Positions 2,597 through 60,643 of a stretch of DNA of 64,000 nucleotides are shown here, one piece after another (position 1 is the first letter of the stretch; every line of letters begins with the position of its first letter). The position numbers and the translations under genes were made by a program. Below the pieces are notes generated by a model, which worked only from the letters and a program-made list of their open reading frames with translations, ran no database searches and was not told the origin of the DNA. Source of the DNA: a virus; the IMG/VR virus record IMGVR_UViG_3300032174_000075, positions 10,821 through 74,820 of that record, one strand, 5' to 3'.

Positions 2597-3616
2597 ATGC
2601 CCAATATCGCTCCGGCCTATGTCACGATCAACCCGTCCTTCACAATGCCGGAGCTGCTGTTGCCATACAGCCAAGCCTCCGGTGCGTTCGATCTTCTGCC
2701 CGATGGGCAGCCGCTTGTGCGCCTTTCGGAAGGCGATCTCGTGGCCTACATCAATCGCATTGATCTTCGCACGCGCATGGCGTCCGGCCAGTCGGCATAC
2801 AACGAACTGCCGTCCGTCACGCCCGTGCTGTCGCAGATCAGCGCTCCGTCCTACCTGCTTCGCGTTCGCGCGGAGTACGACCATCACGACACGGCCGCGA
2901 TGAGCCGTCGTGGAGTGAGCATCGTCGAGGCCCAGCGTCTCGGCATGCGGCAGGGCCACTTCCAGCTTCTTCGCACGATGCTCCTGGACGGCATGAACCC
3001 CGCCAACGGCGAGGGCCTGCTGAACACGAACGGCGCCACGGCGACGACGCTCCCGGCCGATTCCAACGGCAACACGACCGTGCTGACCTACGACAACGGC
3101 CAGATGGCCTTCTATCTTGCCCAGCAGATTCAGGCGCTCAAGTCGCGCACCAATCAGCTTGGCATCGGCAAGGAGTTCACCATCCTTGGCCCGCAGCGCA
3201 CCCTCGGCACGTTCGAGTACAACGTCGTCCAACTCACGCAGTATCAGCGCGTGGGCGCGGGCACGGCCTCGACCGCTGGGACCGTCAAGGAAATCCTGAT
3301 GGCAAACGGCGACAAGATCGCCTGGTGCTATGACGATACCTTGATCGGCAAGGGCGCCGGCGGAACCGACGCGGTCATCATCTGCATGCCCAAGGTGACG
3401 AAGCCGAACGGCGGCACGATCAACACCAACGAGTTCGCCAAGCTTGCGCCGGGCCTGGAAGCGTGTACGCTTCAGCTTTGCGACATGGCGGCGCCGCGTG
3501 AAATCCCGACTCCGATCCCGGGCGGCGCCATCGACATCGTGAGCGAACTGCGCGCTACGTCAGGCTGGGGCGTTCGCGGCGAAGCGGTGACGATCATCAG
3601 CATGGCGTACTCGTAA
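2597..3616 (+). CDS. Major capsid protein
   Basis: 339 aa, AGGAG RBS, strong codon bias, position in head operon. Confidence 0.8.
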   Translation: MPNIAPAYVTINPSFTMPELLLPYSQASGAFDLLPDGQPLVRLSEGDLVAYINRIDLRTRMASGQSAYNELPSVTPVLSQISAPSYLLRVRAEYDHHDTAAMSRRGVSIVEAQRLGMRQGHFQLLRTMLLDGMNPANGEGLLNTNGATATTLPADSNGNTTVLTYDNGQMAFYLAQQIQALKSRTNQLGIGKEFTILGPQRTLGTFEYNVVQLTQYQRVGAGTASTAGTVKEILMANGDKIAWCYDDTLIGKGAGGTDAVIICMPKVTKPNGGTINTNEFAKLAPGLEACTLQLCDMAAPREIPTPIPGGAIDIVSELRATSGWGVRGEAVTIISMAYS

Positions 3617-3643
3617 GAGCCAACCCAAGGAGGGTAACCCCGA

Positions 3644-4180
3644 ATGTCTACCTTGTACGTCGCCAACGCGACGAAGCACTACCAGGAAATCGTGTACCGG
3701 CTTCCCGAGACGCCCGGCGCACGGCGCCAGACCTTGCGTCCCGGAGGGCAAGTCGGAATCCGCGATCTGTCCACCTTGGATGTAGAGGCCATCATTCGCC
3801 AGAACGTCCCTTATGGCTGGACGGATGTTTCGGCGGTGGACCGCGTGAAGCCCTTTGTCGGCATCGTCTATTCGGCCGACAAGCCGGTCAAGGCGGACAA
3901 GATCGAAGGCGTGATGGAGCACAACCTGGGAGTCCTGGTCAATCGAGGGCGCCAGAACCGCGAGATGGCGGCGGTTGCCACGAACGACATGCTTGAGCGC
4001 CAGTTCGAAGCAACGAACATCGCCGACCTCAAGTCCATGGTGATGACCATTGAGGAAGAGGACACCAAGACGCACAGCGCGGAACTGTCCGAACACTTCA
4101 CGGTGGATCGGCATGCGGAAGCGGCGCGAACGGAAAGCCAGCGCCCGAAACGCGCAGCCCACGGCGGCGGGCGGAAGTAA
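3644..4180 (+). CDS. Virion morphogenesis protein
   Basis: AGGAGG RBS; directly after capsid gene. Confidence 0.6.
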   Translation: MSTLYVANATKHYQEIVYRLPETPGARRQTLRPGGQVGIRDLSTLDVEAIIRQNVPYGWTDVSAVDRVKPFVGIVYSADKPVKADKIEGVMEHNLGVLVNRGRQNREMAAVATNDMLERQFEATNIADLKSMVMTIEEEDTKTHSAELSEHFTVDRHAEAARTESQRPKRAAHGGGRK

Positions 4181-22825: not shown

Positions 22826-25336
22826 ATGACCGTTGGCACTCAATCCGTGACGATCATCGGCAATGCCACAGGGCCTCGCGGTCCTGCCGGGCCTCAAGCG
22901 CCTGCGCCGACCGTTGCGGACGTGGAAACCTTTCGTAAGTCGAGCTTTGGCGATACCAGCGCGATCTTCGTCTCTGGGTATTACGGCTTCGGCACGCCCG
23001 GGGGTGGGTTGTTCTTGTATGATCTAGCCGCCGGTGCCGACAATGGCGGAACGGTCTTGCATGATTCCGGAGGACGCCCCTTCGTCCGGCAGAACTACAC
23101 AGGCTCCATCTATGAGTGGGGCGCGAAATGTGACGGCGTGATGTCCACTGCGCCAGGGGCGATAACCATAGGGTCCAGTACATTTACGTCTCCAATTGCG
23201 TTGACGCAGGCCGATATCGGAAAGCCGATTGCCATTGTCGGCGCTGGGGCTAGCGATGGAACGCTCGCCACTACGATTTTGAACGTCGATGTTACTGGGT
23301 TAATTCTGACCCTTTCCACTCCCGCAGTTTCGACCGTTCCGACATATCTAGCGCGCGCCGCAGGGGCAATCGTCACGCCTGGCTCGGCTTATGTGGTCGG
23401 CGATCAAAGCGTTATGTCGGACGGCACGACTATCTTTGTTGCTTCCGTTGGTTCGTCCGGAGAGATCACAAAATTCCTTGTCATGGCGCAGGGTGCCAAT
23501 ATTGCGACGTTACCCGGCACGCTCACGCAAAGCAGCACGACAGGCGCTGGGCATGATTTTACATGCACGCTTTCATACACTGCCAGCGGGCAGTTTGCCT
23601 ATGCAACAAACGACGGCGCAATTCTGAATACCGCGCTGGCTTGGACCGCAGCAAATCCAAATGCGCCCGATGTAAGTATTCCACGAAAAGTTCTCGCGAC
23701 CACGACGCCGATCTTGATGCCGTCCGGAGAAGTTCATCTTCGTGGTGGAGGAGGATTGAGTCTAAACAGCAACGCGGGGGCGGGCATTCTTGCTTTGGCG
23801 CCTATGAGCACGGGCGTCGTCTATCGCTCTTCGACGGCCGGAACAGGCGGGGGTGGCGTTCACAGCCTTTGGGTCGATGCTTACCAGCTCGCCCCATCCG
23901 CGACTGAACATGCCGGCGGACGAGATTTCATCTGGGAAAGCGTTTCTTCGCGAAATGGCCTAGTCCAGAACCACTATGCCCACGGCTCGACCACGGATGC
24001 TTGCGCGGGCGTGCTGTATACGCGGCCAGATGCGCGCGTTATCACGCAAACCTTCGCCAGAATCGACAAGGCCGCCCTCTACGGGTTCAATTTCCAATCG
24101 AACGGAGGACCCGGAACTATCAATTCCCCGGCCTCATCGAACAGTCTGACCTCGGCTATCGAAGATGCGACCTCGGGACTTCATATCTCCAGCGGCAATA
24201 TCTTCGGGGCATGGCCTTACGCGCCGCAATACGGGATCAATGTCACTGGGCAGGCAACCCTAATTGGAAATCAAACCGGAGGCCCGAGGATCGCGGGAGT
24301 GCGCGTCGCCGCCGGAAGGGTTCTGTGCCAAAATACTTACGTCCAGTTTGGCGCAACCACATATGCTGGCCCTGGAACTTATGGCGTCCTGATCGAGGCT
24401 ACTGGGTCCCCTTATTTTACCAACGATTGCGTGGTCATGGGGACGACGACCGATAGCGATATCGGCGCTGGCAATGTTATCCACCAAAACGGTTCGCCAG
24501 GAACTGGGACCGTCGTCCAGAATAATGCCAACGCGACATATTCTTGGCCCCCGGCCTCGAATGCCTCTACCGCTTCGATATGGGCTCAGCCGACGACAAA
24601 TGGCCTAGCCTCGGAAGCGGCAACCCTTTTGTCGCCAGCAATGGGATTCACGCAGTTCAATCTCTATGACACGTTGTTCCGCGCGATAGGGCCAAGCATC
24701 CTTGCGAAGCTTGATTTGCTGTATGTCTTTGTCGCCTTGGACGAGATAACGGCGCTCATCAATATCGCGAACCCAAGTGGTCCGGTATGCCTGAAGGTCG
24801 GGGCGCCAATCTTCACGGCCCTTGGCGGGTATACTGGCAACGGTTCTGGTTATCTCGACAATCAGATCATCACGAGCACGCTCACCAAGTTCGTGTTGAA
24901 CGATGCTTCAATGTTCGTTTGGACGGGGGATGATCAGGCCGCGAACAATTCGTATGCTGTAGGGCAAGCCAGTTCTCCGCGCTCGCGCATCAATCCAAGA
25001 ACGGCCTCTTTGAAACTTCTTACGCGCTCGCAAAGCGCGACGGACGACTCTACGGTCGGCAACGTAGCAAACAGCATCGGTATGACTGGTTGGACGAGAA
25101 ACGCAGCGCCGAGCTACACGCAATACAAGGACGCTGTTGTAGTCGGAACGCCGGCCACAGCTTCTACAGCGCGCGGAAACGCCGACATGACATTTCTTTC
25201 CGATTCGCTGGCTACTTTCTCGACGCGAAACATTCAAGCATTTGCGTGCGGCGGTTATCTGACGCCCACGGAGGTGACGGGGCTATTCACTCCGATGCGC
25301 GCCTACCTCGTGTCGCAAGGCCAGCCGGTGACCTAA
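22826..25336 (+). CDS. Tailspike/receptor-binding protein (beta-helix-like)
   Basis: GYY...GGGLF, DNGGTV and WGAKCDG tailspike head motifs. Confidence 0.75.
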   Translation: MTVGTQSVTIIGNATGPRGPAGPQAPAPTVADVETFRKSSFGDTSAIFVSGYYGFGTPGGGLFLYDLAAGADNGGTVLHDSGGRPFVRQNYTGSIYEWGAKCDGVMSTAPGAITIGSSTFTSPIALTQADIGKPIAIVGAGASDGTLATTILNVDVTGLILTLSTPAVSTVPTYLARAAGAIVTPGSAYVVGDQSVMSDGTTIFVASVGSSGEITKFLVMAQGANIATLPGTLTQSSTTGAGHDFTCTLSYTASGQFAYATNDGAILNTALAWTAANPNAPDVSIPRKVLATTTPILMPSGEVHLRGGGGLSLNSNAGAGILALAPMSTGVVYRSSTAGTGGGGVHSLWVDAYQLAPSATEHAGGRDFIWESVSSRNGLVQNHYAHGSTTDACAGVLYTRPDARVITQTFARIDKAALYGFNFQSNGGPGTINSPASSNSLTSAIEDATSGLHISSGNIFGAWPYAPQYGINVTGQATLIGNQTGGPRIAGVRVAAGRVLCQNTYVQFGATTYAGPGTYGVLIEATGSPYFTNDCVVMGTTTDSDIGAGNVIHQNGSPGTGTVVQNNANATYSWPPASNASTASIWAQPTTNGLASEAATLLSPAMGFTQFNLYDTLFRAIGPSILAKLDLLYVFVALDEITALINIANPSGPVCLKVGAPIFTALGGYTGNGSGYLDNQIITSTLTKFVLNDASMFVWTGDDQAANNSYAVGQASSPRSRINPRTASLKLLTRSQSATDDSTVGNVANSIGMTGWTRNAAPSYTQYKDAVVVGTPATASTARGNADMTFLSDSLATFSTRNIQAFACGGYLTPTEVTGLFTPMRAYLVSQGQPVT

Positions 25337-25698
25337 TGGCGCAGAACAACGCCGACTACAACGGAGTCCTGAGTTGTGTTCAGGACGACCGAGTCACGCC
25401 GATCTACCTGACGGCAGACGGAACGTCAGGCGGGACGCCGCTGCATCTTGAACTGTGGCTGCGCCAATCTCCGGGCGGCCCAGTCGTGGCGGAGTTTTCC
25501 ACGGTAGACAATACCCTTGTTATTCTTGAGCCTCCGAACGACAATCAAATATCCTGGCACATTCCGTTCACGACGATGCAGACACTCGCGGCAAATCTCT
25601 ATTACGGCGACGTGCTCGCGTTGGTGTCGGATACGTCTAGGCTTGGATACGGCTCGCTCTTGTTTCCAGTAGAGCAAGGATCGACGGAAATGGAGTAG
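25336..25698 (+). CDS. Tail-associated small protein
   Basis: TAATG coupling to the tailspike gene. Confidence 0.55.
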   Translation: MAQNNADYNGVLSCVQDDRVTPIYLTADGTSGGTPLHLELWLRQSPGGPVVAEFSTVDNTLVILEPPNDNQISWHIPFTTMQTLAANLYYGDVLALVSDTSRLGYGSLLFPVEQGSTEME

Positions 25699-25724
25699 AA
25701 GACAGCCTGTCTCTGAGGTGCCGC

Positions 25725-25757
25725 GCCCGGTCACGCTTGAATGCTGGCCGGGCTTTG
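25725..25757 (+). terminator. Hairpin between late operon and convergent cassette
   Basis: GCCCGGTCA/TGGCCGGGC stem followed by TTTG. Confidence 0.5.
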
Positions 25758-25772
25758 CATATCCGGGCGATT

Positions 25773-26609
25773 TCAAAAATGCATCCTGTCGCTATCTATG
25801 GTGTCGATCATCCGCAAGCCGTCGGTGCCGGGTATTTCTTGGTCCAGCGAGATCGGCGCGAATAAAAATGGATGCATTCTCCGCACACGAGCCAGCGCCT
25901 TCGGAACAGCCGTCTTCATTTCACCGGGACGGAGTGAGCCCTCTAAGATCGCAAGGATGATGTCTTGGCAGACATCCGCTCGAATGAAGTGAGGGACCTG
26001 CGCCGGAACCATCCGATTGACCATTGCTAGAAGGCCAGTCGGGTCGTCGCGTTCGCTGTCCAAATATGGATAGCATTTTTCCCGCGTTGGCGTATGGCGA
26101 AGGTCGTTTTCGCGATTGACGAGCTTTCGCCTGTTCCTGATTACCGAGCACAACGACTTGCTTATCCCAAGGCGTTCGCATATCTCAGTTGGCCTGATGC
26201 CTTGATGGCTGAGCGCTATCACGGCCTTTGTTGTTTCGTTAAATTCCCGCGCGCTATATCGACGAATCTTTATGCCAGTGTCGGCCAAAATTCGCTTCAC
26301 TTTATCTATTGAAACCAAAAACTTCTCTCCGACCTTTTCAAGCGTCGCGCCAGACAGATATTCGGCGACAATTTCCGCCGTCGGAAACGTCGCCCTTTCT
26401 TGCTGATAGCGCTTCTTGATTAGATCGAAGCCATGGCGTTCTGTAACGCCGTTGCGAATGGCGACTTGGCGAATTGTCTCCCGCGAAAGCCCATATACAC
26501 TCGCTATTGACTGCAACGAATGCTCTCCGCTTTGTAACATCGCAATGATTTCGCAGTTCCTCGCGGTCCTGTCGGCACATGGGGGAGGCTTTTTGCGAGC
26601 GCCTGTCAC
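25773..26609 (-). CDS. Triple-HTH protein with C-terminal sigma-like domain
   Basis: Three HTH-like segments (SLQSIASVYGLSRETIRQ etc.), DVCQDIILAILEG and PISLDQEI. Confidence 0.7.
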   Translation of the reverse strand: MTGARKKPPPCADRTARNCEIIAMLQSGEHSLQSIASVYGLSRETIRQVAIRNGVTERHGFDLIKKRYQQERATFPTAEIVAEYLSGATLEKVGEKFLVSIDKVKRILADTGIKIRRYSAREFNETTKAVIALSHQGIRPTEICERLGISKSLCSVIRNRRKLVNRENDLRHTPTREKCYPYLDSERDDPTGLLAMVNRMVPAQVPHFIRADVCQDIILAILEGSLRPGEMKTAVPKALARVRRMHPFLFAPISLDQEIPGTDGLRMIDTIDSDRMHF

Positions 26610-26797
26610 TGCCTCTTCAACTCCTGTATCCTCTCCAGCGCCTCCATGAGGGCGATGATCTGGGGGGATGGTGAGCGTAATCCGGTTTCCATTTCTCGCA
26701 CTCGCTTGTTCGGGCTTTCGAGGCGGAGCTTTTCGCCGAACTGAGTCACGGATAGCCCGAGGCGGAGACGGAGCGCGCGGATTTCAAAAGGGGTCAT
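26606..26797 (-). CDS. XRE/HigA-like HTH protein
   Basis: MTPFEIRALR..LGLSV.QF....V..ME.G.R.P; ATGA-coupled on both sides. Confidence 0.75.
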   Translation of the reverse strand: MTPFEIRALRLRLGLSVTQFGEKLRLESPNKRVREMETGLRSPSPQIIALMEALERIQELKRQ

Positions 26798-28524
26798 TTG
26801 AATGCTGCCTCCGCTAAGGCCATGACCTTCTCCCGATAGGTTTTGGGCCGGCCTTCGTCAGTAGGCGGCAGAACAGTCATAAGCGTTGCTTTCTCTGCGT
26901 CAAAAACAATTCGCACATTTTTACCCCGCACTCGTATCCATCCCTCGAAAGCGTAGCCGTGATCATCGCCTTTGTGCGCCGACTTCACACCAGACACTCT
27001 TCCTTCTGAGACCGCCGCGCGCATCTCCCGGTTTACAGCCGTTGTCCATTTGATCCCATAGCGCTCTTCTAATCTGGCATGATTGTGCAACGTGCCATCG
27101 TCTAAATGCCGCAACTGTTTGGGGTCGAGATTCTGGAGAATTTCCTCGGCGTCAAAATAATCTACGTATTGATCATCTTTCATATGTAGACGGCGCTGTT
27201 CGTCGCGCACCTGATGATGGTAGACATCATCGACCTGTGATGGCGGATAGAAGCGGTGGTCAATCGCATCCCAAGCGCGCCGTTTCTCGTTCATCTGCTC
27301 GACGCGCCACTCATCTTGAGAAATCGACGCTTCAAGGCGGTCATATTCATCGCCGTCATTCTCGGCAGTTAATGACAGCGCGTGACCCGCTTGTTCAAAA
27401 TTTTCCCTATAGAACTTCGTCACAAACCAACGGACGTTTGTCTGCTTGGCCTTAAGTTCGGCTATCGTGACGCGTCCTTCTAGCATCGCCAGCATAATCT
27501 CTTGTACGATATCGGAGCGCATATGAGGCGGGATAGATTTTGGTATAAGAGAGTTCGCTTCCAAGAGATCGGCGTGCTCGTCACGAACCTTCGCGATATA
27601 TGGAAACTGTAGCAGTTCGGCGCCAGCATGATTGTGAAGGCGAAGGACCTTCTTGGGCTGCGGCAATATTTGCCGCCAAGTATATGACGGCTGAAAGCCC
27701 TTATCGAGAGCGTACCTCACGATTGATTGCGGAGAACGCCCAAGCGCATTTGCCGCTAATTCGACGTTCGCATTGTTCTCACAGAACCTTTCAAGCGCAG
27801 TCTTTTCGGATTGAGTCCACCAAGTTCGCGTACTCATCCAAGCGCCGCCGACGTAGCGGTTTTGCCCTATTTCGTAATTGTGCGCTCTGGCGTCTCGCTC
27901 TGCGAACATGAAAGAGCGAAGCTTTTTACGGGCTGTGCAAGAACTTTTCTTCCCATAGCCGACATGCGCCTCTAAAACTTTCCCCCACGATGATCCGTTA
28001 TTTACATCGTTGATCGCAACGATGGTCATAAGAACCTGCTTCCACGTCAGTTTTGTGGCGCGAAACGGCGTGCCTGATGTAAGTGAGTAACTGTACCCGC
28101 ATCTCTGGCACTTAAAGAGGTGCCTCCCCGTATCTCTCGTAATATGATAGCTCACCCCATGGGCGCACTCTGGGCATATCGGCTCTCCGTCGGTTTCTGG
28201 CCAACGAAGCTGTTTGAAAAGTTCGCGAGCCGCCCATTCCGAAAGAGGTTCAATCGCCTCTGGAGTGAGGGCCTTTGCGGCAGGGCTAGTCATGAAAGCG
28301 CTGCCGGAAGTGTAGCAAGAGCGGCATACTCCAATGCTGCCGGGAAACTTATTGGCCCCACATTTTTTGCACGTTGAATATGCTTCTTCTCGGTCCTCCT
28401 TAAGGAGATTTGCTGCGTCGCTTTCATTTGCCGCCAATATGGCGTTGTTCGATATAAACGCGCCGCCGTGTTCCTTGTAGAGCGGCTTACGGCCTTTGTT
28501 GTGTCGCGACCTACGCGTGCCCAT
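26794..28524 (-). CDS. Multidomain protein: IS1595-type Zn-ribbon/HTH, Myb-like HTH, sigma-2-like and RelE/RegB-like domains
   Basis: RWP...PICPEC..FKCQRC...SLTSGTPF..TKL; no DDE; DIVQEIMLAMLEG; HARLEERYG...IVFD....LMTVLP. Confidence 0.7.
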   Translation of the reverse strand: MGTRRSRHNKGRKPLYKEHGGAFISNNAILAANESDAANLLKEDREEAYSTCKKCGANKFPGSIGVCRSCYTSGSAFMTSPAAKALTPEAIEPLSEWAARELFKQLRWPETDGEPICPECAHGVSYHITRDTGRHLFKCQRCGYSYSLTSGTPFRATKLTWKQVLMTIVAINDVNNGSSWGKVLEAHVGYGKKSSCTARKKLRSFMFAERDARAHNYEIGQNRYVGGAWMSTRTWWTQSEKTALERFCENNANVELAANALGRSPQSIVRYALDKGFQPSYTWRQILPQPKKVLRLHNHAGAELLQFPYIAKVRDEHADLLEANSLIPKSIPPHMRSDIVQEIMLAMLEGRVTIAELKAKQTNVRWFVTKFYRENFEQAGHALSLTAENDGDEYDRLEASISQDEWRVEQMNEKRRAWDAIDHRFYPPSQVDDVYHHQVRDEQRRLHMKDDQYVDYFDAEEILQNLDPKQLRHLDDGTLHNHARLEERYGIKWTTAVNREMRAAVSEGRVSGVKSAHKGDDHGYAFEGWIRVRGKNVRIVFDAEKATLMTVLPPTDEGRPKTYREKVMALAEAAFK

Positions 28525-28690
28525 GGCGCCCTTCCTCCATGAGCGTCACGTTGTATTTCTCGGTCAGGTCTGAAATCCAGTCGCGCAGAAGATCGGCGCG
28601 CAGCACCCAATCGAGCGATTCCCAGTCGGCCGGAAACTGGACGGAACCTTCGCCATCCGCGAAACTTGCGAGCAATTTGGGCTTTGTCAT
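28511..28690 (-). CDS. 59-aa hypothetical protein (not in ORF track)
   Basis: GAGGAG RBS; MTKPKLLASF...LRADLLRDWISDL; overlaps next start. Confidence 0.6.
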   Translation of the reverse strand: MTKPKLLASFADGEGSVQFPADWESLDWVLRADLLRDWISDLTEKYNVTLMEEGRHGHA

Positions 28691-28749
28691 CTTCGACTCC
28701 TCGCCCTCGTTAGGGCTGTAGCGGCGCGGGTGGTGCGCCTATCGACGGC

Positions 28750-28800
28750 TAGGATTGAGCCACAGCCCCGTTGACAGGTCAAGGCTGAAAGCGCACATTT
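28750..28800. promoter_or_regulatory. Overlapping divergent sigma70-type promoters
   Basis: Near-palindrome TTGACAGGTCAA at 28771-28782; + strand TTGACA-N17-CACATT. Confidence 0.5.
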
Positions 28801-28805
28801 CCGCT

Positions 28806-29010
28806 CGGGAACGCCGCCGCTACAGCTAGGCGTGGCTTGGCCGGGAGAGACGGCTGTGTCGCTGCATCGGCGAGCCTTTGCCTTAACGGCAATCCTTCAC
28901 GGAGGGTTGAAGCCTATCGTAACAGACGGCTTGCGCAAAGGCTCACCGCTGCAACGATAATCGGAGACGGGCATGCGCGAGAAAACTTGCATCGGCGACG
29001 GCGGCTCTTC
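28806..29010 (+). ncRNA. Putative structured RNA/leader upstream of holin-like gene
   Basis: 25-bp stem 28857-28881/28935-28959, closing stem 28813-28819/28999-29005, several hairpins. Confidence 0.55.
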
Positions 29011-29059
29011 GTTCGTCGGCGCTGGCAACTCCGCCTAACCACCAAGGAGAACATCCCTC

Positions 29060-29386
29060 ATGGCCGCGCCCTCCGCTCCGGTTATCGTCGCCACGAAGTC
29101 AGCGTGGCTTTCAAAGACGAATTGGGTTGCTGGCCTGACAGGTCTTGGAGCGATCGTCACGCAGTTCACGCCACTATTGCCGCCAGAGTGGCAAGGGAAG
29201 GCGACGGCCTTTGTCGCGCTGCTTGGTGCGGTCGGGGTGTGGATCACAAGGACGTTTTTCACTACCAGTCTCACGCCATCATCTACGGCTGACCTTCCTT
29301 CCGCTGCCAATGCCATCCGAGCCTCTGGCGCATCCGAGGCGCAGGTTGTGGACGCCTTGAACGCCGCTCAGATTACCGCGAAATAG
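29060..29386 (+). CDS. Holin-like membrane protein
   Basis: AAGGAG RBS; WLSKTNW motif and two hydrophobic helices. Confidence 0.6.
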   Translation: MAAPSAPVIVATKSAWLSKTNWVAGLTGLGAIVTQFTPLLPPEWQGKATAFVALLGAVGVWITRTFFTTSLTPSSTADLPSAANAIRASGASEAQVVDALNAAQITAK

Positions 29387-29396
29387 GAGTGCTATC

Positions 29397-29606
29397 GTGA
29401 CTGCGTGGTTTCTGATAATGAGCATACTCATTTACTCAGGCGATGATGGATCTTGGCATAGACAATACCAAGTCCGGGATCAGGCCTTTCCATCTCAGGA
29501 AGAATGCGAAGTCGCGCGTTATCACAGGACGCACAACGACTATTTCGACGGCGATCTACAAACCGCTTGCGTCGAAGTGACACTGCTTCCGAAGATCGAC
29601 AGATAG
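29397..29606 (+). CDS. Hypothetical protein
   Basis: AGGAG RBS; F.SQEECE motif common in small phage proteins. Confidence 0.55.
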   Translation: MTAWFLIMSILIYSGDDGSWHRQYQVRDQAFPSQEECEVARYHRTHNDYFDGDLQTACVEVTLLPKIDR

Positions 29607-36980: not shown

Positions 36981-37467
36981 ACCCGGGAGATGGAGGCCGC
37001 AGATGCCTAGTTTGACCGAAAATGAACTGCAGAATCTGCACAGGCTACCGTTCGCGGAACGCAGCCTGATCTCGATGCGGTGTCATATCGCGCGGAATGA
37101 GCCGCGGGCGGTGCGCGACCAAATCCTTCGCGACGCAATCAATAGCTGAGGCCTCTGACCATGACAATTTTTCGAGTGAGGTTCCAAGTGCAAGGCGGCC
37201 ATGTGCATTGTCGCCTGTTCGCCGCTGCGCAGCGTGGCGTGACGTTCGCCAAGTGCGGCGACTTCGTCGTGCGCAAAGGCGCGGAGTTTCGTGACTTTGT
37301 GGCGGCTTTCGAGAATGCTGATTCGGAACTATGCACTTGGGAAACCCAAGCCTAGGTCTAGCGGCAAGTTGTGGACACCATGACGGACCGTGACCGCTCC
37401 TCCACAGCGACTCAGATACCATTCCCGGAATGGTGGCAGCATCGGGCTGCTGATGAAGGGCGTGTAG

Positions 37468-38241: not shown

Positions 38242-39168
38242 TCATGCAGCCCGCTTCCGAATTGGGTCCTGATACATCAACCGTGCGCCTGCGCTAAGTG
38301 CAATCGCCTTCATGGTTCGCTCCGCGTCCGAACTCTTGCGCTCGTTCCAGCGATAGGAGAACTCGTTGCAGTAGCGGTGCAGGTGGGTCTTGCTGACGCT
38401 GTGGAATGAGCCGGTGATACCGCGCTTAAGCAGCGCGAAATAAGACTCCGCATCGTTTGTCGAGACGCCGTCGCGGGCATACTCGAACTTCGCATGATTG
38501 ACCGTCTCGTGGCCGCCCTCGAACCACTTGCCCACGCCACGATAAGAAATGAGCTGGTCGGTCTGGATTTGCGAAGACGGATGCACATTGTTGCGGATCG
38601 CGTCTTGCAACGTCTTGGCGGTGATATTCGCAATCGGCCAAGAGCGGACGCGCCCGCCACGCTCGACCAATGCGACGACGGGAGCCTTATCGGTCCCGCG
38701 ACCTTCCTTGGACTTCTTGCCGCTATGTTTGCGCGGCTTGCCGCCGACATAGGTTTCATCCGCGACCACGATGCCTTGAAGGAGCCCCTTCAATGGATTT
38801 TGCGCCATCGCGTGCCGGATGCGGTGGTTCAAGTGCCACGCGGTGCGATAGGAACCGAGGCCAAGCTGGCGCTGCAATTGAAGGGCGCTTACGCCTTTCT
38901 TTGAAGAACACATGATCGAGAAAGCCATGAGCCAAATCCTGATCGGAAGGTGCGAGGCTTCCATGATCGTGTTCACGGTGACGCTGAATTGCTGCGCGCA
39001 GCCATTGTTGCATTTCCAAACGCCGGGACGATGCTTCTTGCCCTTGAATTTTGTGTGGCCTTCGACGCAGCCGCAATGCGGACAAACCGGACCCTTCGGC
39101 CAGACGATGCCCTCTAGCGTTTCGCGGGCTTGATCTTCGGTCATTTTGGACAGTTCGGAGAGGTTCAT
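38242..39168 (-). CDS. IS1595-family (ISXO2-like) DDE transposase
   Basis: CPHCG Zn ribbon, VSALQLQRQLG HTH, DETYVGG / QTD / NDAESYF. Confidence 0.95.
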   Translation of the reverse strand: MNLSELSKMTEDQARETLEGIVWPKGPVCPHCGCVEGHTKFKGKKHRPGVWKCNNGCAQQFSVTVNTIMEASHLPIRIWLMAFSIMCSSKKGVSALQLQRQLGLGSYRTAWHLNHRIRHAMAQNPLKGLLQGIVVADETYVGGKPRKHSGKKSKEGRGTDKAPVVALVERGGRVRSWPIANITAKTLQDAIRNNVHPSSQIQTDQLISYRGVGKWFEGGHETVNHAKFEYARDGVSTNDAESYFALLKRGITGSFHSVSKTHLHRYCNEFSYRWNERKSSDAERTMKAIALSAGARLMYQDPIRKRAA

Positions 39169-39236
39169 CGGTTCGGCCCTTGATCGTGTATGCAGTATGT
39201 AATACATTCGAAGCCGTTGTCAAGCGGAGTGCATAC

Positions 39237-39455: not shown

Positions 39456-39619
39456 GCCGGTTGACAAGAATCGTGCCCGCAGCGAGACTCGAACTCGCAC
39501 GGCTCCGGCGAAGGAACCGGGGGATTCCAGGTCCCCCGCGTCTACCAGTTCCGCCATACGGGCCACGATTGAGGGCTTCTCCGGCCCGGGTAGGACCAAG
39601 ACCGGAGAGCCTGTCAGCG

Positions 39620-41494: not shown

Positions 41495-41526
41495 GTTGAT
41501 GCCGGTTTGCGAAGTGCATAGTTCCG

Positions 41527-55241: not shown

Positions 55242-55673
55242 ATGGGCTGTAGTCGCGTTCATAATTGGAATGACGCTCGGATCGAAAAGCTCAAAGAGCT
55301 ATTCGCTGATGGCCTGTCGTTCTCGCAAATTGCTCGGGCTTTAGGTGGTGTCACGCGGAACGCATGCATCGGGAAAGTTAGACGCCTTGGCCTGGGTGGC
55401 GACAGAAAGAAGCCTGAGAGAGTTCGCCCGCGCGCAAACTTCGAGCCTGCCATGCAACCACGCCCGATCAAGCCTCGCATCATCGAAGGTATCGAGCCTG
55501 AATCTCTCAAACTCTCCATCACTGAGATATCCGACCGCACCTGCAAATGGCCCAGCGACGATTATCCCTATACCTATTGCGGTCACAAGCCTAAGCTCGG
55601 CTCGCCGTATTGCGAGTATCATTTCCAGAAATCGCGCTCGGTTCCGTATGGGCCAAGGGAGAAGACGGCGTGA
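55242..55673 (+). CDS. gcrA: GcrA-like transcriptional regulator
   Basis: W....IEKLK.L..DGLS.SQIA..LGGVTRNACIGK..RLGL; CKWP..CG....GSPYC..H. Confidence 0.9.
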   Translation: MGCSRVHNWNDARIEKLKELFADGLSFSQIARALGGVTRNACIGKVRRLGLGGDRKKPERVRPRANFEPAMQPRPIKPRIIEGIEPESLKLSITEISDRTCKWPSDDYPYTYCGHKPKLGSPYCEYHFQKSRSVPYGPREKTA

Positions 55674-58746: not shown

Positions 58747-59808
58747 ATGCCCTGGATCGAGCCAGAGTATCTAAACTGTAGCGTCTATCTCTATCCCTCA
58801 GAAGCCGAGGCAGAAGAAGGCAAAAGGATCGGCGGAAGCGGATTCTTGATCAGCATTACGCTTGCGCAGGATCACCAGCACGGCGGCTGGGTCTCTCAGC
58901 AAATGGTCTGCGTCGTTACAAACAAGCATGTGGCTGACGCCGGCAATAAAGTGGTTCGCGTAAATACCAAGAGTGGCGGCAAGGACACCATCGCCCTTGA
59001 TCACGCTATCTGGTATGACCATTCTGAAGCTGACTTGACGTTGTGCCCAATTGGCTTGGACGTTGAACATCAATTTTCCTGCGTCTCGACCGACGCCCTC
59101 ATAACTGAGAAAATTATTTCTGCCTTCGATATTGGCCCTGGCGATGAGACATTTATGGTCGGGCGGTTTGTCAATCACGAAGGCCGTCAGCGAAATACGC
59201 CAAGCCTGAGATTCGGCAATATCGCCCAAATGCCATTCGAGCCTATTAAAATGAATGGGCTCCCGCCGCAGGATGCTTTCTTGGTAGAGACGCGCTCTAT
59301 CGCTGGGTACAGCGGGTCTCCAGTCTTTGTATATCTCCCGCCGCAGCCCGACTTATCGAAATACCCTACGGTGCATGCCGCTGTCCTAAAAGGTGAAATG
59401 AAAATACCGGGGATCAACCCAAAGCGAATGGCATTCGACGTTCGGTTGGGGCCATGGGTGCTTGGAATAGATTTCTGCCATATCCACGACAAAGAACCGG
59501 TGCTGAGTAGAATCACCGAAACCCCAGTTTCCCCGGAATGGTACGTCAAATCGAACACTGGAATGGCCGGCGTTATCCCCGCATGGAAAATATTCGAAAT
59601 CCTCAATGGAGATGACATGCGCAAAGTCGTTGGAACCGCGATAAAGATCGCGAGAGAAAGGCTTAGACCTTCTGGCGGCGCTACTCTCGACGTGGCGCGC
59701 GACGAGCCCAAATCTGATCAGAATGGCCCTAACCCCGACCACAAAGAGGATTTCATGCGTCTTCTAGGCGCGGCAGCGAAAGCGAAACCATCAACCGATC
59801 AAACATAG
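58747..59808 (+). CDS. IS passenger: trypsin-like serine protease
   Basis: GSGF, VTNKHV, ADL and GYSGSPV triad motifs. Confidence 0.88.
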   Translation: MPWIEPEYLNCSVYLYPSEAEAEEGKRIGGSGFLISITLAQDHQHGGWVSQQMVCVVTNKHVADAGNKVVRVNTKSGGKDTIALDHAIWYDHSEADLTLCPIGLDVEHQFSCVSTDALITEKIISAFDIGPGDETFMVGRFVNHEGRQRNTPSLRFGNIAQMPFEPIKMNGLPPQDAFLVETRSIAGYSGSPVFVYLPPQPDLSKYPTVHAAVLKGEMKIPGINPKRMAFDVRLGPWVLGIDFCHIHDKEPVLSRITETPVSPEWYVKSNTGMAGVIPAWKIFEILNGDDMRKVVGTAIKIARERLRPSGGATLDVARDEPKSDQNGPNPDHKEDFMRLLGAAAKAKPSTDQT

Positions 59809-60643
59809 AGCGATGACAGTGCCGATTGTTGCGACGATACGAGAACTCGCTGACGTATTTCCAAAGATGCTTTTGGGAAACGTGAATGTGTGTCCCTTTG
59901 ATCGACCGCTTCAATTGCGACCAATGCCCTTCAATGCCGTTCGTGTGGTGGATACCGTCAACCCATTCATCTTTGCTGTGGTTGACCGTGCCGTGCGGGT
60001 AGCCCATCGGTCCAAGGTTCACGTATCCGGGCCATTCGTCCGTGCTGACGACCGCGCCCTTCGCAACGTTCCTCACAACGGCGCGCTCAAGGACATGCTG
60101 ACGGCGGTTCGGGATTGGGCCAGCGACCACGCGACCGTCACGCTGCAACATGCCAAGCAGTGTCGTCTTGTTTTCCATCGCGTTCTCTCTGCCGCGTCCG
60201 GTGTTGCGACCGCCCATCAGCGTTTCGTCAATCTCGACGTGACCGGAAAGCGGGCCAGCCCCGTGCGTGTCTGCATTCGCCATGAGCTTGCGAAGCTCGT
60301 GCGCCATGCGCCACGCCGTCTTGTAGGTGCAGCCGATCTGCCGCTCCAATTCCTTCGCCGCGACGCCGTGACGGGTAGAGGTCATGAGGTACATCGCGAA
60401 GAACCAATTCGTCAGCTTCGTGCTCGACTTGTGAAAGATCGTCCCGGCGCACGGGTAGATATGGTGCCCGCATTCCTGGCAGGCGAACGCCTTGCGGGTG
60501 TTCATGGCGTGAAACTGCGCCTCCGCCACGCCACAGCCCGGACAGGTGATCTTCGTCCCGCCATGCTGGATGTTCATGAGCGCCAGAAGGCAGGCGGCGT
60601 CGTCCGGGAACTGGGCTTGGAACTGCTTGAAAGTATATTTCAT
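59753..60643 (-). CDS. IS1595-family (ISXO2-like) DDE transposase
   Basis: CPGCG/CQECG Zn ribbon; VEIDET / STDEW / TNGIEGHW. Confidence 0.95.
   Translation of the reverse strand: MKYTFKQFQAQFPDDAACLLALMNIQHGGTKITCPGCGVAEAQFHAMNTRKAFACQECGHHIYPCAGTIFHKSSTKLTNWFFAMYLMTSTRHGVAAKELERQIGCTYKTAWRMAHELRKLMANADTHGAGPLSGHVEIDETLMGGRNTGRGRENAMENKTTLLGMLQRDGRVVAGPIPNRRQHVLERAVVRNVAKGAVVSTDEWPGYVNLGPMGYPHGTVNHSKDEWVDGIHHTNGIEGHWSQLKRSIKGTHIHVSQKHLWKYVSEFSYRRNNRHCHRSMFDRLMVSLSLPRLEDA

Follow-up and report, generated by a model that had tools for sequence, protein, structure and literature searches.

ORF576 is an open reading frame (ORF) of 576 amino acids (aa) on the minus strand of a phage genome, IMG/VR virus record IMGVR_UViG_3300032174_000075. 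The DNA analysed, here called the window, is a stretch of 64,000 nucleotides (nt) corresponding to bases 10821-74820 of this 74,820-bp record, which CheckV rates as complete. ORF576 (26794-28524, -) starts at an ATG with a GGAGGA Shine-Dalgarno sequence ~8 nt 5' of it, and belongs to a cassette of minus-strand genes. From the N- to the C-terminus, the protein consists of a basic peptide, a cysteine knuckle, a Zn-ribbon and helix-turn-helix (HTH) of the IS1595 type, an HTH of the Myb/GcrA type, a conserved helical core, a helical linker and a C-terminal domain. A second gene of the cassette, ORF278 (25773-26609, -), encodes a protein with three HTHs in tandem and, at its C-terminus, a further copy of the core domain (aa 180-276, nt 25782-26072).

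The IS1595-type Zn-ribbon and HTH occupy aa 77-214 of ORF576 (27883-28296, -). Pfam Zn_ribbon_IS1595 (PF12760) matches aa 95-144 with an E value of 9.2e-11 and 42 bits (cut-off 25.4). In BLASTP comparisons, aa 79-179 match the window transposase at 38242-39207 (-) with 26% identity (E 2e-6) and aa 117-206 match the one at 59753-60643 (-) with 24% identity (E ~2e-4). The similarity to transposases runs past the Zn-ribbon and through the next HTH, to about aa 215-227. This is the N-terminal DNA-binding region of the ISXO2-like IS1595 transposases. Unlike in the transposases, the module in ORF576 sits after an unrelated N-terminal peptide and before the Myb, core and C-terminal domains. The DDE domain (DDE_Tnp_IS1595, PF12762) is absent from ORF576; a six-frame search of the phage matches only the three true transposase genes, and the Pfam scan agrees. 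No terminal inverted repeats (TIRs) bracket ORF576, the region 25000-29400 holding only short inverted repeats at chance level. The first-pass annotation, made from the sequence before these searches, had described a domesticated IS1595 DNA-binding module with neither a DDE domain nor TIRs. All parts of that description stand, and domestication is well supported by an architecture that is kept in distant homologues and occurs in split form in one phage.

The phage encodes three IS1595 DDE transposases. Two lie within the window and the third at 2977-3948 (+) of the record (G000), outside the window; their mutual identity is only 27-33%. The ORF576 head is only 24-31% identical to these three resident transposases versus 39-46% to unrelated IS1595 transposases from the database, over aa 77-179/227 (~100-150 aa). 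In a tree of the heads, ORF576 falls into a family-only group of 17 (weak support), apart from the resident transposases, and nine other family members form a clade of their own (100/100) within the transposases. Although the sequences are short, this separate nested clade indicates that the IS1595 head was probably captured into the family more than once. Clear 23-nt TIRs are found only at the middle transposase (37324-37346 and 41504-41526, 21 of 23 positions identical), where they enclose 4.2 kb. No third copy of this TIR is present elsewhere in the window or near the cassette, and a quick TIR search at the other two transposase genes gave only weak 12-13-nt matches. The TIR-bounded element also contains a 91-nt tRNA-Pro(UGG) called by ARAGORN (39473-39563, -).

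The second DNA-reading head, aa 222-288 (27661-27861, -), is predicted to be a three-helix HTH of the Myb/GcrA type. A Myb-like HTH had been suspected here from the sequence, and aa 228-277 were confirmed as such a fold. Its best structural match is the DNA-binding domain of GcrA (PDB 5yiu). Searches of PDB sequences with phmmer and a profile returned only 2lvs_A (E 0.045), on the Myb part, and Foldseek with a model of aa 219-576 returned nothing from the PDB at E<=0.001. ORF576 thus appears, from the model, to share the DNA-binding fold of the GcrA proteins of Alphaproteobacteria and their phages but not the GcrA sequence family, PF07750 having no match in ORF576 at E<=10. Nor was any similarity detected between its core and the domain of GcrA that interacts with sigma. 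The only PF07750 match in the phage is a canonical GcrA-family gene at 55242-55673 (+; E 3.5e-29), separate from the GcrA-like HTH within ORF576.

The helical core, aa 303-380 (27385-27618, -), is the family-defining domain. It consists of four helices with the motifs PEHADLL...N.LVP...R.D..Q...LEG...WF..KFY; P308, E316, H317, N324, P328, R336, D338, Q341, A346, E349, F367 and F371 are invariant. Paralogy links ORF576 aa 307-406 with aa 180-276 of ORF278 (29% identity, E 9e-10). The core is followed by a helical linker, aa 381-469 (27118-27384, -), with an acidic SL...DD..YD motif.

The first-pass annotation had called this part of the protein sigma-like. The match to ORF278 establishes a real, shared helical domain, and the sigma label goes no further than the level of motifs. 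First, the core motif R.D(I/V)CQE..LA..EG resembles DLIQEG..GLM of sigma-70 regions 2.1-2.3. Second, there is an aromatic WF..KFY helix in the core and then an acidic SL(D)...DD..D segment, clearest in ORF278-type proteins. Third, the Atlas places the core next to a viral Sigma70_r2 neighbour cluster at 0.91, and an extracytoplasmic function (ECF) sigma factor at TM 0.46. ORF278 (25782-25850) also has an end motif, SLD..I.GTDGL..D.I.SD..HF, in common with gp58 of Ochrobactrum phage POI1126 (L039:4617-5276) and gp104 of Brevundimonas phage Delta (L040:4425-5249); the motif resembles sigma region 3.2, and profile comparison gives homology no support. Region 4 of the sigma-70 family is absent from ORF576, and the 50 best VIA matches of the multi-domain model include no sigma chain. 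A sigma-region-2 identity of the core is a lead only.

The N-terminal basic peptide, aa 1-20 (28465-28524, -; MGTRRSRHNKGRKPLYKEH), is conserved at the protein level across divergent relatives. Its 19 aa are 95-100% identical between proteins that are otherwise ~30% identical or that differ in their middle part. Across four loci, the DNA encoding it carries many synonymous changes, thus purifying selection acts on the peptide itself. The peptide probably marks an important interaction. In one locus (L018:4990-6135) it heads a 381-aa protein with neither Myb nor core, and the adjoining gene has a weak core match. The CxxC...CxxC knuckle, aa 48-75 (28300-28383, -), is present in only a few relatives.

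The C-terminal domain, aa 476-555 (26860-27099, -), has a predicted alpha-alpha-beta4 topology like that of RelE/ParE. The segment had been singled out earlier as a RelE/RegB-like end, and it does fold as a discrete domain (predicted local distance difference test score, pLDDT, 84). The residues H480, R484, R488 and G490 show no or almost no variation. In the model, the domain appears to have the same two helices on a four-stranded antiparallel sheet as RelE/ParE and the BECR-fold toxin tips (YafQ, MqsR, BrnT, CdiA-CT, colicin D), and about 25 of the 30 top VIA structural matches are RelE/ParE or BECR-type toxins. With the same model, Foldseek found nothing in the PDB at E<=0.001; a Foldseek search of BFVD found only unnamed viral proteins of ~100 aa that match this domain. 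No toxin family model matches ORF576 in Pfam (E<=1), NCBIfam (E<=0.1) or PADLOC, DUF4258 has no match at E<=10, and an HNH motif is absent from the protein. A word-index search with the C-terminal domain alone returned only ORF576 itself. The domain also resembles small stand-alone phage proteins and part of phage DNA ligases. In the representative library, a 598-aa protein (P0139) has six or seven tandem copies, with the H/R motif intact in only some of them. Occurrence in tandem, alone and in ligases fits an adaptor better than a toxin.

ORF576 belongs to a large family. The word-index search with ORF576 found 38 relatives, four of which are full-length with the same domain order at 31-35% identity (P0006, P0009, P0010, P0013). 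When a profile of the N-terminal peptide, Myb, core, linker and C-terminal domain was used as the query, 4147 cluster representatives matched at E<=1e-3; 312 of these reached E<=1e-10 and 124 reached E<=1e-30. Custom hidden Markov models (HMMs) of the domains were mapped onto 170 retrieved proteins, and a Pfam scan was made over 145 members. The domain-HMM mapping shows that the minimal recurring unit is Myb plus core, in proteins of ~180-260 aa. To this unit may be added an N-terminal peptide, an IS1595 head (in 21 of the 145 members by Pfam), other HTHs, a linker and a domain in the C-terminal slot; across the family this slot is empty or holds the alpha/beta domain seen in ORF576 or an HNH domain. 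Roughly 30 homologues have the alpha/beta domain. Pfam has no model for the Myb, core, linker or C-terminal domain, and matching to PHROGs gave no known function. The fusion is not a one-off IS remnant, as homologues at 31-35% identity retain the whole architecture and one phage has it in split form. In the latter (L016:5484-6858; IMGVR_UViG_2548877000_000004), a 175-aa gene for an IS1595 Zn-ribbon and HTH lies directly upstream of a 285-aa gene for N-terminal peptide, Myb, core and linker. It can be argued from this arrangement that the IS1595 head and the Myb-core unit work together.

Relatives occur in mixed neighbourhoods. POI1126 gp58 is among early genes, adjoining two annotated transcriptional regulators and downstream of an integrase, and Delta gp104 is within a run of small early genes. 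Myb-core genes lie a few kb upstream of the large terminase in two loci (L002 and L023), with a NusG-like gene nearby in L002, and in another (L025) the copy is near tail-fibre genes, as in the window. Such neighbourhoods suit regulators and mobile accessory genes alike. Members that could be placed, a small sample, are from viral contigs and phages of Alphaproteobacteria. A full-length homologue is carried by an IMG/VR phage (L001), where it is flanked by a 334-aa protein with a DGQHR motif and no Pfam match (L001:6420-7424) and by an 836-aa ClpB-like double-AAA+ ATPase (L001:10694-13204). A tblastn search of 50,697 GenBank phage records with ORF576 and with a minimal family member found no match, and scans of genome contigs and of metagenome contigs gave one short locus each. 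A literature search found no description of the family, which appears to be undescribed.

The cassette is on the strand opposite to its neighbours. The phage has a tailed-phage gene layout with the large terminase and portal genes immediately 5' of the window. The plus-strand structural genes end with a tail-fibre-like gene of 836 aa (22826-25336, +), and plus-strand genes resume from ~29060, followed by an early region on the minus strand that encodes RecT and an exonuclease; the cassette lies between the tail-fibre-like gene and these later plus-strand genes. It may begin with a 59-aa ORF (28511-28690, -), which overlaps the ORF576 start by 14 nt, and may end with a 116-aa ORF (25426-25776, -), which has a 4-nt overlap with the ORF278 stop; neither has a family match. 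Between ORF576 and ORF278 is an XRE-family HTH gene of 63 aa (26606-26797, -). As seen in the initial reading, it overlaps the ORF576 stop, its ATG lying within ATGA; at its other end the stop codon runs into the GTG of ORF278 (GTGA), and the gene is translationally coupled to both neighbours. Start and stop codons thus overlap along the whole cassette (ATGA, GTGA, 4-14 nt). The GC content of the cassette is 51-53% versus ~57% for the whole phage. The XRE protein matches HTH_3 with E 4.4e-5 and 23.9 bits (cut-off 23) and, at only 63 aa, is essentially the HTH alone. A second and stronger XRE gene is in the early region of the phage.

The host of the phage is probably an alphaproteobacterium, as inferred from the canonical GcrA gene, from core relatives in Brevundimonas and Ochrobactrum phages and from transposase relatives (e.g. 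from Sagittula). No tyrosine integrase was detected in the phage. The sole public run holding the stretch is a soil metagenome, probably its source, and no RNA dataset is among the runs listed.

The reading preferred here, held tentatively and at somewhat less than even confidence, is that ORF576 is a multi-headed sequence-specific DNA-binding protein, most likely a transcription or genome regulator and not a toxin. It is favoured because of the thousands of nuclease-free members, the several DNA-reading heads, the shared core that looks non-enzymatic and the regulatory neighbourhoods. The heads would place ORF576 on specific phage or host sites. The core common to ORF576 and ORF278 would be the output surface that either contacts host RNA polymerase or sigma factor, or pairs the two proteins. 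The XRE protein would autoregulate the operon, and the C-terminal domain may be an accessory adaptor or effector module.

A number of observations weigh against a regulator. First, no ORF576 domain gives a direct functional assignment, and gene context was read for only a handful of relatives. Second, the route to RNA polymerase is not reflected in profile searches: PF04542 (Sigma70_r2) is unmatched at E<=10 in the phage and at the cores of five related phages, hhalign comparisons of six E. coli sigma factors with the core, alone or joined to the linker, gave probabilities of 0.7-1.4%, and the core is not tied to the sigma-binding domain of GcrA, PF07750 being without a match in ORF576. Third, a reversed, low-GC cassette beyond the tail genes resembles a moron or a selfish insert. 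Fourth, HNH is found in 7 of the 145 members and is C-terminal, after the linker, in the five checked (P0008, P0016, P0019, P0082, P0089). Taken together, HNH in this slot and the structural matches of RelE/BECR type point to an effector nuclease and not to a regulator.

ORF576 would then be a site-directed nuclease or exclusion factor, like a free-standing homing endonuclease, in which the heads target a long site, the C-terminal slot is the effector and the XRE gene does no more than control expression of a selfish cassette acquired horizontally. This is unlikely, though it accounts for several features. HNH holds the same post-linker position in the five proteins named above, nearly all matches of the C-terminal model are RelE/ParE/CdiA-CT/colicin D toxins, and one helix of the domain carries the invariant residues H, R, E and R. 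The reverse strand and low GC content of the cassette are consistent with it, as are the PHROG matches of ORF278 and of proteins with the N-terminal peptide, which are to DNA-binding parts of HNH and homing endonucleases. The nuclease-free members, which number in the thousands, favour the DNA-binding regulator.

A bolder proposal takes the sigma likeness further. The Myb-core family would be permuted minimal initiation or RNA-polymerase-recruitment factors of phages, with the interchangeable heads (IS1595, arginine-rich N-terminal peptide) first and a sigma-2.2/2.3-like bundle plus a sigma-3.2-like acidic finger last. ORF576 and ORF278 would reprogramme host RNA polymerase, and some lineages would gain a nuclease-type effector through the C-terminal slot. 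This proposal is judged improbable.

Doubtful, too, is a toxin-antitoxin (TA) or abortive-infection unit, in which the C-terminal domain would be a DNA-tethered RelE-like RNase toxin and the XRE protein its HigA/MqsA-type antitoxin. The order of a toxin-like domain and then an HTH with an ATGA overlap is as in higBA and mqsRA, the structural matches, weak at the level of fold, include YafQ, RelE, MqsR, HigB2, BrnT and ParE, and the position of the cassette is moron-like. In NCBIfam, the XRE protein scores best against the HTH half of MqsA (TIGR03830), at 15.4 bits far under the cut-off of 61.8. Against these, no TA or defence family is matched by sequence in Pfam, NCBIfam or PADLOC, where the cassette gave nothing above noise. 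The XRE protein has nothing besides its HTH. L001 is the sole other locus with the C-terminal domain that could be read; the gene that follows and overlaps there is not an XRE gene and encodes an unrelated 116-aa protein with no HTH_3 or family match. The RelE-type catalytic positions are unconserved, and the domain is also tandem-repeated, ligase-fused and stand-alone in phages. A predicted complex between the C-terminal domain (alignment A5) and the XRE protein scored 0.00, which gives no verdict either way. The HigA-like partner put forward in the first-pass annotation is thus not upheld, and neither is its other suggestion, a regulator of IS1595 ends, which found no positive evidence. That the head binds the TIRs of the resident IS1595 elements and represses or directs their transposition is very improbable: homology to the transposase N-termini and three transposase genes in the phage would suit it, but the head is closer to unrelated transposases than to the resident ones and lies away from the latter in its family-only tree group of 17, clear TIRs are at one element only with their sequence nowhere else in the window, and relatives occur in phages with no IS seen adjoining.

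Neither domain shuffling in DNA-binding regulators nor the reuse of transposase heads for DNA binding is new in itself. The present case adds three aspects. First, this is a large family, with thousands of representatives, whose defining domains are outside Pfam and have no PHROG function. Second, recruitment of the IS1595 DNA-binding head seems to have happened more than once. Third, the C-terminal slot varies, being empty in some members and holding an HNH nuclease or a RelE/ParE-shaped domain in others. Should the C-terminal domain be a nuclease, it would represent a new effector tethered to DNA. If the core contacts RNA polymerase, the family would represent a new way for phages to redirect transcription.
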